From Candidatus Wolfebacteria bacterium GW2011_GWE2_44_13 (GTDB taxonomy: Bacteria > Patescibacteriota > Minisyncoccia > UBA6257 > UBA9933): a stretch of DNA of 64,000 nucleotides. Both the position numbers and the translations under genes were made by a program. Under the pieces are notes generated by a model, which searched no databases, was not told where the DNA came from, and was given only the letters and a program-made list of their open reading frames with translations. The stretch covers positions 289,424 to 353,423 of the forward strand of contig LCHW01000001.1 of NCBI GenBank assembly GCA_001000675.1, written 5' to 3'. How positions within the stretch are numbered: the stretch's first letter is position 1; each line of letters opens with the position of its first letter. Below, in pieces: positions 7,287 to 59,374 of this stretch.

Positions 7287-7910
7287 ATGAATTTCTCTTC
7301 ACTACAAGCATTACTTTCTTCAGGCATTGATTTGATACCGTTCGCATTCTTTGTGGTAATGGTTATTAGTGCTGGATACGTATATCTTCGCTCTCCGTTG
7401 TTAGGCGGGCAGCGTTTAGCTGTATTTACCCGACTTATTGTTGCCGTGGTTAGTTTTCGCATTGCATTTGCTGCTGCAAAAAGCGGTTTACAATATTATG
7501 CTTGGGTGCAAGACGAGTTAGGAAAGTTACTGCTTCCGCCAACGCAACCTATCACGTATTTTTTTCAGTACATATGGACGCATTTTTGGGCCAATGTCGT
7601 TCTTTCGCTTGGGGTTGGATTACTTACGTTTATTGTCTTGCGTACTTTACAAAAAAAGAATCAACGATTCTTTGATGTGGGTGAAGTTGAGCTAGGCACA
7701 TTACTTGCGCTTGTTGTTGGGTGGCCCCATTTTGTTGTGTTTGTTCCGCTCGTTTTTGTACTTGTGGTGCTTATTAGCATTATTCGTGGCATCGTAGTAA
7801 AGGAACCGTTTACCACCCTTGGGTTACCCTTTATTGTCGCAGCATGTATTGCGTTATTTACTGCAGTGCCCGTACTTACGTTTCTGCACCTTGAGGAGTG
7901 GATTATGTAA
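7287..7910 (+). CDS. polytopic membrane protein (possibly prepilin-peptidase-like)
   Basis: 207-aa ORF that is almost entirely hydrophobic helices. No diagnostic catalytic motif was confirmed. Confidence 0.4.
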   Translation: MNFSSLQALLSSGIDLIPFAFFVVMVISAGYVYLRSPLLGGQRLAVFTRLIVAVVSFRIAFAAAKSGLQYYAWVQDELGKLLLPPTQPITYFFQYIWTHFWANVVLSLGVGLLTFIVLRTLQKKNQRFFDVGEVELGTLLALVVGWPHFVVFVPLVFVLVVLISIIRGIVVKEPFTTLGLPFIVAACIALFTAVPVLTFLHLEEWIM

Positions 7911-22621: not shown

Positions 22622-22717
22622 GGCCTAATAAGGCGTTTTTCGGAGAAATATAAGATACACTCCTGCAGAGCGCAGGTTTGTTGACATTTTAATGGTCTTC
22701 AGGTATCTTTAAGTGAT

Positions 22718-23041
22718 ATGAAATTCGCAGTAATCGAAACAGGGGGAAAGCAATATAAGGTTTCCGCCGGACAAAAACTGAAGGTGGAGAAAATGGACGT
22801 CGAAATTGGCGCACAGTTTTCTTTTGACAAGGTTTTACTTGTTGCAGATGAGCAAAAGGATGGCGCCGATACCACTATTGGAACCCCATACGTTGCCGAT
22901 GTTAAAGTTGGTGCAACCGTACTAAGCAAGGATCGCGATGATAAAAAAATCGTATTCCGCTATCACAACAAGAACCGCTATCGAAAGTTTAAGACACACC
23001 GACAGCACTATATAGAGGTGGAGATTAACACCATCGGTTAA
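22718..23041 (+). CDS. rplU: 50S ribosomal protein L21
   Basis: MKFAVIETGGKQYKV... is a canonical L21 N-terminus. 107 aa. Confidence 0.9.
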   Translation: MKFAVIETGGKQYKVSAGQKLKVEKMDVEIGAQFSFDKVLLVADEQKDGADTTIGTPYVADVKVGATVLSKDRDDKKIVFRYHNKNRYRKFKTHRQHYIEVEINTIG

Positions 23042-23064
23042 ATTGCTCGCTCTTTTGTGGCCTA

Positions 23065-23157
23065 CTGTGTTACGGGGCCCCATCGATTCGGTCGCAGTAC
23101 TTCTGTACAGCTCTCTCGTCGATTTCCCCGTGCCTTGTATTCCATCAAAATATCAAG
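23065..23157 (+). repeat. conserved structured intergenic element, copy A (downstream of rplU)
   Basis: ~74% gapless identity to 53020-53111. Hairpin gtacTTCTgtac here corresponds to gtgcTACTgcac in copy B, a compensatory change. Confidence 0.45.
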
Positions 23158-23247
23158 CAATTTGATAAAAAATCGTCAGCTCACTAGGCTGGCGATTTTT
23201 TGTAATGAAAGAAAATTATAGGCAAAAACGTAGTATACTGTATCTAT

Positions 23248-23838
23248 ATGATTGACCACGATTCATACGAGGAAAAATCCGATACAGAGTTGGTCGCATT
23301 AACCTTGCAAGACCGCAATGTATACGCGTATTTAATCCGTCGATATGAGATTCCGCTTGTGCGTTATGTGCGTCGGATCTCGGGATATTCTGATGACGAT
23401 ATCGCGGATATTCTGCAAGACGCATTTATTGGGGCGTATCGTAATTTAAATGATTTCGACACTTCGTTGAAATTTTCCTCGTGGATATATCGAATTGTGC
23501 ATAATGAAACAATATCGCACCACCGAAAGAGGCAAACACGACCACAAACCGTTTTTGTGGAAGAGGGAAGTGATTTGTTTGAATCGCTTGCATCGGAAGT
23601 GGATGTACCTCGGGACGTAGATCAAGCGTTAGTTGCGCAGCGTATCCGAGCAATTCTCGACACTATGGATGCAAAGTATCGAGATGTGCTGGTGCTTAAA
23701 TTTCTCGAGGATAAAGATTATCGAGAAATATCCGATATTTTGCAAAAGCCTATGGGGACAGTTGCTACATTAATTAATCGTGCGAAGAAACAGTTCAAGG
23801 AAAAGGTTGAGCATGATGTCGCGATATCGTCGACATAA
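23248..23838 (+). CDS. ECF-type RNA polymerase sigma factor (sigma-70 family)
   Basis: Region 2 (DAFIGAYRNLNDFD...FSSWIYRIVHN) and region 4 (YRDVLVLKFLEDKDYREISDILQKPMGTVATLINRAKK). Confidence 0.8.
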   Translation: MIDHDSYEEKSDTELVALTLQDRNVYAYLIRRYEIPLVRYVRRISGYSDDDIADILQDAFIGAYRNLNDFDTSLKFSSWIYRIVHNETISHHRKRQTRPQTVFVEEGSDLFESLASEVDVPRDVDQALVAQRIRAILDTMDAKYRDVLVLKFLEDKDYREISDILQKPMGTVATLINRAKKQFKEKVEHDVAISST

Positions 23839-27425: not shown

Positions 27426-27497
27426 GTCACCCCGGCGGAGACCGGGGTCCAGTTTTTTAAACCTATACTTCTAGATTCCGGCCTCCGCCGGAATGAC
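27426..27497. repeat. REP-like palindromic element (GTCACCCCGGCGGAGACCGGGGTCCAG ... GATTCCGGCCTCCGCCGGAATGAC)
   Basis: Two GC-stem hairpins in inverted orientation. A covarying variant of the GTCATTCCCGCG...GCGGGAAT family. Lies between recR and dnaB. Confidence 0.5.
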
Positions 27498-41194: not shown

Positions 41195-41278
41195 AACAGT
41201 AATAAATGCCTATGTGGCATCAGGAGAAGAGCTCTTTGCATCCTCCTTCAGTCACATAGGCATTTACTGTTTTTATCT
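41195..41278 (+). terminator. long perfect hairpin (~23-bp stem) terminator after ppsA
   Basis: aaaaacagtaataaatgcctatgtg ... cacataggcatttactgtttttat. Confidence 0.45.
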
Positions 41279-41288
41279 CCTTTTGCAT

Positions 41289-41353
41289 TGTCATTCCCGC
41301 GAAGGCGGGAATCCAGAGTTATTAATTATAGATTCCCGCCTTTGCGGGAATGA
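41289..41353. repeat. REP-like palindromic element (canonical copy)
   Basis: gtcattcccgcgaaggcgggaatccag ... gattcccgcctttgcgggaatgac. Two 8-bp GC-rich hairpins arranged as terminal inverted repeats. Confidence 0.55.
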
Positions 41354-41362
41354 CAGAAGAAA

Positions 41363-52451: not shown

Positions 52452-52486
52452 TCAACAATTAACTGAAAAGACTCCGCCTCCCCGTG

Positions 52487-52513
52487 TCATTCCCGCGGAG
52501 GCGGGAATCCAGT
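52487..52513. repeat. REP-like palindromic half-element
   Basis: gtcattcccgcggaggcgggaatccag lies between rpoC and rpsF. Confidence 0.45.
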
Positions 52514-52558
52514 ATTTCTGCTTTGACATTAAGCAAATAATCTAGTACAGTACACACC

Positions 52559-52993
52559 ATGGAACAGCAAGTAAAAAAATATGAAATCGGGTTTTTGGTA
52601 AGGGAAGAATCCGAAGTCGACGAAATCAAGAACGCACTCGCAGCCGCAAAGGCAGAAGTCGTTTCTGAAGGTCGATTGAAGAAGATTCGCTTATCCTATC
52701 CTATTAAAAAGGAAACAGTAGCCCATTTCGGTTATTACTGGTTCATGCTTGATACTCAGGCCGTAAAGGAAATGGACGCAAAATTGCGTCTCAATACCAA
52801 AGTTTTGCGACACATCATAATCGCGGAACCGCTTGAGCTCAACAATGAAGAACGAGTAGCCGGAGTACGTGGTGAAAAGACCGAGAAACCTCGAGAGCGT
52901 TCTGCTGAGAAGCCTGCAACAAAAAAACCAGCTGATTTTGATGCAGTCGACAATGCTGTGCTTGAGAAGACGTTAGAAGACATCCTAAAATAA
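52559..52993 (+). CDS. rpsF: 30S ribosomal protein S6
   Basis: MEQQVKKYEIGFLVRE...GRLKKIRLSYPIKKETVAHFGYYWF with an acidic/basic C-terminal tail. Confidence 0.9.
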   Translation: MEQQVKKYEIGFLVREESEVDEIKNALAAAKAEVVSEGRLKKIRLSYPIKKETVAHFGYYWFMLDTQAVKEMDAKLRLNTKVLRHIIIAEPLELNNEERVAGVRGEKTEKPRERSAEKPATKKPADFDAVDNAVLEKTLEDILK

Positions 52994-53019
52994 TCATACT
53001 TCATGTGTTTGGCGATCTG

Positions 53020-53111
53020 CTGTGTTGCGGGTCCTCGTTGTTTCGGTCGAAGTGCTACTGCACGTCTTCCTCGACAACGTTCCCGCGCCTTGCATCTCAT
53101 CCAAACACAAG
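53020..53111 (+). repeat. conserved structured intergenic element, copy B (downstream of rpsF)
   Basis: Paralog of 23065-23157 (see copy A). Starts 27 nt after the rpsF stop and ends 28 nt before ssb. Confidence 0.45.
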
Positions 53112-53138
53112 AACTATGAGCACAATTAATACTCATTT

Positions 53139-53618
53139 ATGGATCTAAACAAAGTATTCGTAGCCGGTCGTTTAACCGCAGATCCGATCCTGAAGACAAC
53201 ACCGCAAGGTCAGTCAGTAGCAACCTTCTCAATCGCAACTAACAGTTCGTGGATTGATAAGAGTGGTGCGAAAAAGGAAGAGGTCGAATATCACAACATT
53301 GTGGTATGGGGGCGACAGGCGGAAAATTCTGCAAAGTTTCTCACCAAGGGAGCAATCGCACTCGTCGAAGGACGAATGAAGACGCGCTCATGGCAAAACC
53401 AGCAAGGACAGACCGTAAAAACTACCGAGATCATCGCTGATCGTGTCCAGTTTGGACCACGAGCAGGCGGAGGAGGAGGTATGGCTGCGCACACAAATCA
53501 TGCTGATGCGCCAGCGCACGACGACTTTGGATCAGGCCCTTCTTCACTTGAAGAAGAAGCCCTTCCACAAATCGATATCGATGAAGAAGATATCAAGCCG
53601 GAGGACTTACCGTTCTAA
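53139..53618 (+). CDS. ssb: single-stranded DNA-binding protein
   Basis: OB-fold start MDLNKVFVAGRLTADP, a Gly-rich linker and an acidic C-terminal tip ...DIKPEDLPF. Confidence 0.9.
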   Translation: MDLNKVFVAGRLTADPILKTTPQGQSVATFSIATNSSWIDKSGAKKEEVEYHNIVVWGRQAENSAKFLTKGAIALVEGRMKTRSWQNQQGQTVKTTEIIADRVQFGPRAGGGGGMAAHTNHADAPAHDDFGSGPSSLEEEALPQIDIDEEDIKPEDLPF

Positions 53619-53706
53619 GGCAGCAGGAGTTGATACGTTAGCCGGTTCGTCGAACCGTGGCGACCGAACAACGTTCCACCAACCAATCAACTAATACAAC
53701 AAACAT

Positions 53707-53913
53707 ATGGTAACAAAGCAATGCTTTTTCTGTTCTCAAAACTTGAAGACACTCGACTATAAAGAAGTCGATTTACTGAAGCGTTTCGTTTCTGGTCAGG
53801 CTAAGATCATCGATCCTCGCCACACCGGAACATGCGCAAAGCACCAGCGTATGATTGCGAGTGCTGTAAAGCGTTCCCGATTCATGGCGCTGCTTCCGTT
53901 CGTAAAACGATAA
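53707..53913 (+). CDS. rpsR: 30S ribosomal protein S18
   Basis: 68 aa. CFFC...YKEVDLLKRFVSGQAKI...R is typical of S18. Confidence 0.9.
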   Translation: MVTKQCFFCSQNLKTLDYKEVDLLKRFVSGQAKIIDPRHTGTCAKHQRMIASAVKRSRFMALLPFVKR

Positions 53914-53998: not shown

Positions 53999-54036
53999 AA
54001 CTAAAAATCCCCAGCCTTTGGCTGGGGATTTTTAGT
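53999..54036 (+). terminator. rho-independent terminator
   Basis: ctaaaaatccccagcc-tttg-gctggggatttttag. Confidence 0.55.
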
Positions 54037-54046
54037 TAAACAGCCT

Positions 54047-54110
54047 GTCATTCCCCGCGGAGCTTGCCGCGTGGTCCATCTCGGGTGGACTTTACGTGGG
54101 CGGGAATCCA
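54047..54110. repeat. REP-like element with internal insertion
   Basis: gtcattccccgcgga...[~35 nt]...gggcgggaatcca. Confidence 0.4.
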
Positions 54111-54589
54111 TCTTTTCGTACTTTTTCAAAAAAGTACATCCGTCGGATTCGTGTCGGAGTAATCGAATCCGACAGCCCGGCACGTTGCACGTTTACTTCG
54201 CTCACTAGCAACGCCAAGGGCAAAACTTCGAACCAGAAATATTTCGGGGTCGCCTCCAAAACGGCTGAAGCTCGGAACTCGTACGCCGAGGGTAGGCGCA
54301 CTCAAACACCGAGCTTCTTCCGATATTTTTCCAGCGCCCTTAATCCGAAATATTTCCATGTTCGTAAACTCAAAATCCGTCCCTTCCGTCATTCCTGCGA
54401 AAGCCCAAATTTGTGCGACGATTTTATTAGTTATAACTTTACGCTATAGCGTAAAGTTATGGCTAATATAAAAAGGGTGTGTTGCCCCCCTGAAAGCCAA
54501 GGGTGCTTCTGGGAAATTTGACAATTTTCTGCTATTCGTGTTAGATAAAGCCAGATCTAAAACAACTTTAAGGAATGGGAGATTGTGCG

Positions 54590-59126: not shown

Positions 59127-59374
59127 CACATAGCAACATAAGCGCCTACTCTTTACGGGTAGGCGTTTATGTTGCTGCTATGAGTGGAGATAAAGAGGGA
59201 TTCGAAAACTACTTTTAAAAGCAAACTGCTTTGCTTTTAAAAGAGTCGGCGATGGAGGAGTTTCGAAGCTTGTTTCGAGTATTCGAGGAACGCTGAGTAA
59301 CGGGGGAAGAGGAATCCCTTCCCCTCCGCCATTTAGAATAGGTATTCCAATGAGATATTTGGCAAATTGATTCT

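Follow-up and report, generated by a model that had tools for sequence, protein, structure and literature searches.

Palindromic elements abutting the rplU and rpsF stop codons in a Candidatus Wolfebacteria genome are probably relics of a small MITE-like transposon

Introduction

Liang, Rudd and Deutscher (2015) reportedly found that, when a REP sequence is located near the stop codon of a gene, terminating ribosomes can stall and expression can fall. HUH and tyrosine recombinases make no target duplications when they mobilise DNA. Transposases of the PHIS/IS5 superfamily are reported to leave duplications of 2 bp (TA) or of 3 bp (PMC12730594). Correia elements are co-transcribed with their neighbours as a long hairpin, which is a reported substrate of RNase III (PMC2229807).

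In a stretch of 64,000 nucleotides from a Candidatus Wolfebacteria genome, which was analysed as a whole and is called the window below, a preliminary description made from the sequence alone had pointed to two similar structured stretches, each located directly 3' of a ribosomal-protein gene. The candidate roles that it named included an autoregulatory or attenuator element bound by a ribosomal protein and a small structured mobile repeat. We conclude that both stretches are probably old, immobile copies of a small non-autonomous MITE-like transposon, which is ~125 bp long and almost entirely an imperfect palindrome. The family to which they belong is apparently undescribed, and it has several properties that are unusual for a MITE.

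Results

Two paralogous hairpins in the window

The two copies (A and B) were found on the + strand at 23065-23157 and 53020-53111, and analysis of the borders showed that both elements extend further, to 121-126 nt each. The flanking genes are those given in the preliminary description, with L21 followed by an ECF-type sigma factor and S6 followed by SSB and S18 (Pfam). The features at the two loci are:

22718..23041, + strand: rplU (ribosomal protein L21), the stop of which adjoins copy A (ORF; PF00829)
23039..23041, + strand: TAA, the present rplU stop, taken to be the left copy of a duplicated target, TNA (sequence; empty sites)
23042..23162, + strand: copy A, palindromic element ATTGCT...AGCAATT, 121 nt
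23065..23137, + strand: conserved core of copy A, CTGTGTTACGGGG...CCCCGTGCCTTG (core-pattern match)
23163..23165, + strand: TGA, read as the right target copy and ancestral rplU stop (alignment to the relatives L028 and L024)
23172..23202, + strand: intrinsic terminator of rplU, with a 9-bp stem and a T-tract (sequence)
23248..23838, + strand: gene for an ECF-type sigma factor, downstream of copy A (ORF; PF04542, PF08281)
52559..52993, + strand: rpsF (ribosomal protein S6), the TAA stop of which (52991-52993) adjoins copy B (ORF; PF01250)
52994..53119, + strand: copy B, palindromic element TCATAC...CTATGA, 126 nt
53020..53092, + strand: conserved core of copy B (core-pattern match)
53139..53913, + strand: ssb and rpsR, downstream of copy B (ORFs; PF00436, PF01084)

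The ungapped alignment of the two originally delimited stretches supports their paralogy, with an identity of 64/92 (69.6%) in place of the 74% given earlier. As had been claimed, this is far above the background, given that random ungapped window pairs are 25.7% +/- 4.7% identical. Every shared sequence block that had been named was found in both copies, and the double change GTAC-TTCT-GTAC (copy A) versus GTGC-TACT-GCAC (copy B) is present in the sequence. With blastn the two copies are 71% identical over 104 nt (E = 5e-9), and this similarity ends at the borders of the element. The flanking genes were therefore not part of the duplication, which disposes of the segmental duplication that had been put forward as a competing explanation. 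For a motif that covers the central hairpin, the window has two occurrences compared to 0.05 expected, and no further copy was found in the 64 kb by blastn, nhmmer or a covariance model run with the filters off, the remaining hits being generic hairpins.

Each copy can be folded into a single long irregular hairpin of ~45 pairs, the first base of which is located at or beside the stop codon of the upstream gene. The hairpin of copy A has a folding energy of -42.5 kcal/mol (folding z = -5.3) and matches the covariance model at 23038-23166 with 128 bits, and the corresponding values for copy B are -52.8 kcal/mol (z = -6.0) and 143 bits at 52994-53120. The ends are inverted repeats, ATTGCT/AGCAAT(T) in copy A and TATGA paired with TCATA in copy B. 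When the 29 pairs that can be compared between A and B were examined, both sides had changed in 9/29, one side in a single pair, and no pair was broken. Double changes are seen in 20/41 pairs once two orthologs of copy B are added.

Near-consensus sigma-70-type promoters were noted directly 5' of rplU (TTGACA-17-TATCTT, 22681-22709) and directly 5' of rpsF (TTGACA-17-TACAGT, 52523-52551), from which it follows that each gene probably heads its own transcript running into the hairpin. Scans of the element for promoters and terminators gave nothing but one terminator-like match in the 5' arm of copy B. The element as an intrinsic terminator was considered and rejected: copy A precedes a separate terminator, and copy B is located inside the rpsF-ssb-rpsR cluster and has no T-tract. 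Bases of the A-tract/T-tract kind do occur in a minority of the family. The conserved CCTTGCAT was likewise rejected as a sigma-70 or sigma-54 promoter, since by eye the spacing and the -10/-24 elements do not fit.

The window also contains other repeats and hairpins. A second, unrelated short palindromic repeat that is rich in GC, GTCATTCCCGCGRAGGCGGGAATC, occurs at several intergenic places (52486-52509, 41290-41354 and 27474-27497 in the window, and 1868-1935 of the related contig L032); one of its copies is located just 5' of the promoter-like site of rpsF, and at 41.3 kb there is a head-to-head inverted pair. At 54040-54420, 3' of rpsR, there is a non-coding stretch of ~400 bp that is dense in repeat fragments. 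Within it, 54169-54218 (CGTTGCACG...CTAGCAACGCCAAG) is 82% identical to a piece that interrupts the element A of L032 (L032 1691-1740), and this likeness suggests that a third repeat family seems to insert into other repeats. Weak covariance-model matches at 41202-41267, 54001-54036 and 59133-59176 are strong hairpins that look like ordinary terminators, and the one at 54001-54036, 3' of rpsR, has the terminator-like sequence AAAAATCCCCAGCC-TTTG-GGCTGGGGATTTTT.

The same hairpin in genomes of about ten phyla

The preliminary description had proposed a search for more copies. Contigs representing one genome per species were searched for exact matches to a core pattern, which on the opposite strand reads CAAGGCRCGGG-N44-60-CCCGYAACRCAG. 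This pattern matches both window copies and at least 117 loci in genomes of about ten phyla, where by our own estimate ~2 loci are expected by chance. More than 100 genomes carry the element, and the 64-kb window holds two copies only. Written on the + strand, the asymmetric core is 5'-CTG-YG-TT-R-CGGG ... TC.YCGTAC-loop-GTACGYCTC ... CCCG-Y-GCC-TTG. Across the core-pattern matches listed the layout of the hairpin is uniform and the outer stems are variable, with the order CTGYGTTRCGGG, a variable stem, the apical TC.YCGTAC-loop-GTACGYCTC, the complementary variable stem and CCCGYGCCTTG.

Among the matches listed are records labelled as Patescibacteria (Wolfebacteria, Parcubacteria, Saccharibacteria, Nomurabacteria and Paceibacterota), Beta- and Gammaproteobacteria (Gallionella, Nitrosomonas, Polaromonas, Methylotenera and Thiotrichales), Myxococcota, Desulfobacterota, Nitrospirota, Acidobacteriota and Dormiibacterota, as well as Chloroflexi, Verrucomicrobia, Bacteroidota and one Firmicutes record. 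Four Wolfebacteria-type copies were used to build a covariance model, which found 63 elements in 84 sources and picked up diverged second copies that adjoin pattern matches and had been missed by the core pattern; in these the bases of the internal loop vary, and the G-C pair, the U-G wobble and the bulged U are retained. All of the at least 117 matches in the species-representative collection are from metagenome-assembled genomes (MAGs), many of them from groundwater or sediment, and cultured isolates are absent. A MAG that is labelled Klebsiella pneumoniae and has at least nine GC-rich copies is probably mislabelled or mis-binned.

The comparison with Rfam that had been proposed showed that no Rfam family covers the element. 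At the gathering score of Rfam 15 there was no match on it in the whole window or at 18 other loci. At E <= 10 nothing was found on copy B, and on copy A there was a single overlap at chance level (IRES_Tobamo, 14.8 bits compared to a gathering score of 50, E = 8.7). Plasmid and phage records gave no blastn match to the element, and a scan of 2.9 million viral contigs gave 0 matches. Literature searches with words of the core sequence returned only chance matches in unrelated papers, sequence words being seldom printed in text, and those on MITEs at stop codons returned no description of this hairpin family.

The genes upstream of the elements are varied and encode S6, S2, L21, FtsA, FtsZ, MreB, DnaK, GyrA, GreA, S-adenosylhomocysteine (SAH) hydrolase, AhpC, PilC, pilin, transketolase, M23 peptidase and others. 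This bears on the suggestion that the element is an autoregulatory leader or attenuator, the hairpin of which would mimic the rRNA binding site of L21, S6/S18 or another ribosomal protein. The location of both window copies 3' of ribosomal-protein genes, and the occurrence of S2 and S6 among the upstream genes in relatives, would agree with such a role. However, most family members follow genes unrelated to the ribosome (such as those for FtsA, DnaK, GyrA and GreA), the element is located 3' of the ribosomal-protein gene and not in a leader, copy A is followed by a terminator of its own so that it leads nothing and is also absent in relatives, and no ribosomal-protein leader of Rfam matched even at E <= 10. 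We consider this role extremely improbable. The association with ribosomal-protein genes is a coincidence of where insertions survive, and the high expression or density of these loci possibly helped such survival.

Four SAH-hydrolase genes in different genomes were seen to carry the element at the stop, and in Polaromonas (L050 3644-3718) a SAH riboswitch is located 5' of a SAH-hydrolase gene that bears the element at its stop.

Register with stop codons and orientation bias

At 39 loci the end of a co-directional upstream ORF is located 12-36 nt 5' of the core, in 37/39 cases at a distance of 21-35 nt, and the stop codons (TAA 20, TAG 13 and TGA 6) fall in the basal stem. Among the Wolfebacteria-type copies 16/18 start within -3 to +2 nt of the stop. 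A TA/TNA target is contained within TAA, TAG and TGA, which would explain the register with stop codons. Such a target is symmetric, though, and leaves the orientation of the elements unaccounted for: 39 elements have a stop at the 5' end and 4 have one at the 3' end (p = 3e-8). For elements between convergent genes the count is 8 versus 1, and given that the bias persists there, replication direction alone is an insufficient explanation. A directional effect thus acts during or after insertion, and RNA, transcription or translation could be involved.

Filled and empty sites in relatives

Identical L21 and S6 proteins are encoded on Rifle groundwater contigs, and among named organisms Parcubacteria, including Candidatus Wolfebacteria, are the closest relatives. 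The organisation of the rpsF-ssb-rpsR operon is the same in the relatives. The rpsF site is filled in relatives with S6 proteins 90% and 82% identical (L016/L018 and L019/L021) and in Wolfebacteria RIFOXYD12_FULL_48_21 (L065), so that orthologous copies of B are available from L065, L016 and L019, and it holds no element in a relative with an S6 that is 78% identical (L023). Copy B is older than copy A and common to related Wolfebacteria.

The rplU site holds no element, and no visible replacement, in L024 and L028 (L21 86% and 79% identical), where the spacer of 76-79 nt consists of the stop TGA and the terminator only. In L032 (L21 83% identical) the 3' arm of element A and the terminator are kept and the interior is broken up by another repeat, one that is also present at 54169-54218 in the window. 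The junction in the window reads GGT-TAA / ATTGCT...AGCAATT / TGA-TAAAAAATCG, and its right-hand part, TGA-TAAAAAATCG, aligns with TGA-TATCAAAAAATCG in L028 and TGA-TCAAAGAAATCCG in L024. On the basis of the empty sites and the TAA...TGA flanks, copy A is read as an insertion into the ancestral TGA stop of rplU. This would have produced a 3-bp duplication, the left copy of which would since have become TAA, still a stop. An equivalent terminator hairpin is present 3' of rplU in L024, L028 and L032, and the rplU terminator of the window, which also aligns to terminator hairpins of Rfam models with scores below threshold, is, judged from these sequences, older than the insertion of copy A.

Between copy B and its ortholog in L065, which have identical flanks, three pairs have undergone compensatory double changes in place. 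These suggest that the hairpin has been kept in place after insertion; template switching within the palindrome could also give such changes without selection.

Dispersed copies, inverted ends and target duplications

The hairpin of 150-190 bp, with 89-99% identity, is all that the copies within each of five MAGs have in common, and their flanks are unrelated. Single MAGs contain 6-9 near-identical copies, the dispersed hairpin repeat being 140-190 bp in several genomes, and a Wolfebacteria-type genome has at least five copies on one 893-kb contig. The inverted ends are perfect or near-perfect in every multi-copy family, and the short direct repeats that flank the elements change from copy to copy (of each inverted end, the beginning is given):

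Anaeromyxobacteraceae: inverted end ACCCGGGTTATTCA; flanking repeats TCA/TCA, TGA/TGA
Myxococcales: inverted end AGATGTGGCAGG; flanking repeats TGA/TGA, TCA/TCA, with TGA being the stop of the upstream gene
'Klebsiella'-labelled MAG: inverted end GGGCCCGCGCAAAAATAA; flanking repeats TTA, TAA
Nitrosomonadales type: inverted end GGGCACCTCTAAAAATCC; flanking repeats TAA, TGA, TCA
Nitrospirota: inverted end GAGCTTGTGAGG; flanking repeats of 3 bp, variable
Many Patescibacteria: inverted end varies; flanks TA...TA

At the window copies the duplications are degenerate, with TAA versus TGA at copy A and TAA versus GCA, that is, none left, at copy B. With a length of 121-190 bp, no coding capacity, stems that vary without regard to codons, inverted ends, copy-specific duplications, dispersed copies and presence/absence polymorphism (rplU being empty in L024 and L028), the elements share these properties with MITEs, which are non-autonomous DDE transposons of less than ~300 bp. 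Among the roles considered in the preliminary description it is therefore the small structured mobile repeat that agrees with the data, given the recurrence in more than 100 genomes, the dispersed copies with inverted ends and target duplications, and the empty copy A site in two relatives.

Searches for a source of mobility gave negative results. Pfam analysis of 182 neighbouring ORFs revealed no transposase or recurrent partner gene beside the elements, ~0.9 Mb of flanking DNA contained no autonomous IS with the same ends, lone half-cores examined as possible IS ends were only truncated copies or chance matches, and a fuzzy search for extra inverted ends found further mini-elements only. One half-core that resembled an IS end with a Shine-Dalgarno sequence and an ATG was rejected, as it is the start of a histidine-kinase-like ORF.

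Tandem or nested copies were observed at L116 7628-7755 and ~7830-7900, at L058 5743-6065, and at L077 5131-5403 with a truncated third copy at ~5450. They suggest either that the element itself is a preferred target or that local duplication has occurred.

Stem covariation and the strand that folds

A MAFFT alignment of 65 diverse members misaligned the variable stems, with RNAalifold keeping 12 pairs, and a model-guided alignment of 62 distinct sequences was used instead. In this alignment, which is biased toward the model's own structure, 87.7% of the cells are paired compared to 58.3% in shuffles, double changes are found in 39/41 pairs, and the covariation score is 0.627 compared to 0.159 in shuffles (0/500 reach 0.627) and 0.08-0.10 when the partners are slid. 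Changes on one side only, through G-U intermediates, are rare (0-3 per pair). The reverse complement folds better than the + strand in 62/65 elements, with mean energies of -71.8 and -59.9 kcal/mol, respectively. Among the non-Watson-Crick cells of the + strand, pyrimidine-pyrimidine combinations outnumber purine-purine ones (163 versus 26) and A-C outnumbers G-U (105 versus 45). Both of these strand comparisons speak against a simple reading as + strand RNA. The invariant U-G wobble and the bulged U, however, are located on the + strand.

The preliminary description had taken the compensatory change in the central hairpin as an argument for selection on RNA structure. The covariation is indeed very strong, but the step to RNA specifically is less safe, given that G-U pairs are rare and that the opposite strand folds better. 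Because of this rarity of G-U pairs, maintenance of a palindrome at the DNA level is as plausible as selection on RNA, and a DNA palindrome kept by transposon biology or by template switching would also give such covariation. The hairpin is clearly maintained, be it as RNA or as DNA.

One possibility is that the host has exapted the element as a hairpin in the 3'-UTR or between cistrons, the + strand RNA being kept for what it does to the upstream mRNA. Possible functions are a block to 3' exonucleases, a site for RNase III through which rpsF and ssb-rpsR would be uncoupled, or a modulation of termination at the stop codon buried in its base. This possibility overlaps with the transposon explanation, and the two are not mutually exclusive. 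It would agree with the orientation bias (both overall and between convergent genes), the double changes between orthologs with identical flanks, the retention of copy B in several species and the + strand location of the invariant wobble and bulge of the core, and there are precedents in Correia elements, as RNase III substrates, and in ERIC, with its orientation-dependent mRNA stability (PMC2229807). However, the + strand is the weaker fold in nearly all elements, its mismatches are mostly pyrimidine-pyrimidine and A-C and not G-U, G-U intermediates are rare, and close relatives lack copy A and have nothing visible in its place. Taken together, these observations make exaptation a real but doubtful possibility.

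The better folding of the - strand could alternatively mean that the element moves as a folded single strand, in the manner of attC, IS200/IS605 or REP/RAYT-like elements, or that the opposite strand encodes an RNA gene. Apart from the advantage of ~12 kcal/mol in 62/65 elements, the - strand has tandem G-A where the + strand has U-C and C-U, an extra-helical base and an asymmetric internal loop are conserved across phyla, and the loop sequence is kept while the stems covary. On the other hand, the flanking repeats of 2-3 bp vary in concert and hence are true target duplications, inspection of the sequences revealed no R''/R' boxes (RYYYAAC / GTTRRRY) or cassette arrays, there is no recombinase gene among the neighbouring ORFs, and no promoter for a - strand RNA was evident. 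We regard movement as a folded single strand, or an RNA gene on that strand, as very unlikely.

Two particular systems were rejected individually. For an integron attC site, the core GTT pairs with GC and not with AAC, and the copies are solitary behind housekeeping genes with no integrase nearby. For REP/RAYT or IS200/IS605 elements, the flanking repeats are duplicated and vary between copies, as opposed to the absence of duplication beside a fixed tetra- or pentanucleotide.

Discussion

According to the MITE-like explanation that we prefer, either strand of the element could fold into one long hairpin, and new copies arise by cut-and-paste or copy-in insertion that duplicates a TA/TNA target, as seen in other genomes and for copy A. 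The transposase would be of the IS5 / PIF-Harbinger type, making TA/TNA duplications of 2-3 bp. Insertion into TAA, TAG or TGA would duplicate the stop and leave the gene whole, and in gene-dense genomes the surviving insertions may be those that fell exactly on stop codons, which would account for the location of both window copies directly at a stop. Copy A would have entered the TGA stop of rplU, 5' of the pre-existing terminator, and the insertion of copy B into the TAA stop of rpsF would have been earlier, preceding the divergence of these Wolfebacteria-like species. Once inserted, the element might be transcribed as a 3'-UTR or intercistronic hairpin, and could perhaps affect the stability of the mRNA 3' end, its processing or the termination of translation; such an effect could explain the orientation bias and the compensatory changes in place.

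Several observations speak against the transposon explanation. There is no autonomous element with matching ends and no transposase near any copy among those searched, and the duplications at both window copies are degenerate. The ends vary by host group and the core is constant, which is the reverse of what recognition by a transposase alone predicts. In addition, a symmetric target does not account for the biases of 39 versus 4 and 8 versus 1, and a dead transposon has no need of the double changes that separate copy B from its L065 ortholog and that point to selection on the hairpin after insertion.

Conserved in the core are a G-C pair, the U-G wobble, the bulged U, a 3x3 loop rich in pyrimidines and, at the apex, a CGUAC...GUACG stem bordered by mismatches, which are U-C on the + strand and G-A on the opposite one. 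It is conceivable, though rather unlikely, that this core is a functional RNA or single-stranded DNA module, which has been spread across about ten phyla in mini-transposons with different ends and is selected in one orientation with the stop in the basal stem. In that case the family would not be a passive transposon scar but a mobile element of 3' ends, with an effect on the termination of translation or on what becomes of the mRNA.

For the window, the analysis removes a tempting lead to a ribosomal-protein regulator. For the family as a whole, an interior that is conserved across phyla with variable ends, a near-nucleotide register with stop codons and an orientation bias of about 10 to 1 are unusual for a MITE. 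If these properties reflect function, the elements would offer a natural system for studying the effect of a mobile hairpin on termination and mRNA decay, also in the streamlined Patescibacteria. Their recognition also helps annotation, as an unrecognised copy could be taken for a structured RNA or a terminator.

Among described repeats, the Correia (NEMIS) elements, a MITE of Neisseria, resemble the present family in their length of ~100-155 bp, inverted ends, TA target and intergenic location (PMC2229807). They share no sequence with it, however, are confined to one genus and are not tied to stop codons, whereas the hairpin family occurs in about ten phyla and has a conserved interior and variable ends. 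RUP of Streptococcus pneumoniae and IS630-type MITEs are likewise small, with a hairpin formed by paired 5' and 3' parts and a TA duplication (PMC2229807). RUP has a partner with matching ends, IS630-Spn1, whereas none was found for the hairpin family, many members of which duplicate 3 bp (TNA).

Tourist-like MITEs of the IS5 / PIF-Harbinger (PHIS) type share the duplications of 2 bp (TA) or 3 bp (PMC12730594). Unlike in PHIS, the ends within the hairpin family are heterogeneous (GAG..., GGGCACC..., GGGCCCGCG... and ACCCGGG...), and assignment to PHIS would need a transposase. The IS1031 group of ISfinder presumably combines TNA duplication with ends beginning GAG, as in several elements of the hairpin family. 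The REPs of E. coli that are located near stop codons are similar in placing a stable hairpin within a few nucleotides of the stop, but they are 20-40 nt long, and the RAYT (HUH) enzymes that move them do not duplicate the target. ERIC (IRU) of enterobacteria has no sequence similarity to the hairpin family, a narrow host range and no stop-codon register. Nevertheless, it too is a co-transcribed imperfect palindrome, of ~127 bp, and its orientation-dependent effect on the upstream mRNA parallels the orientation bias described here (PMC2229807).
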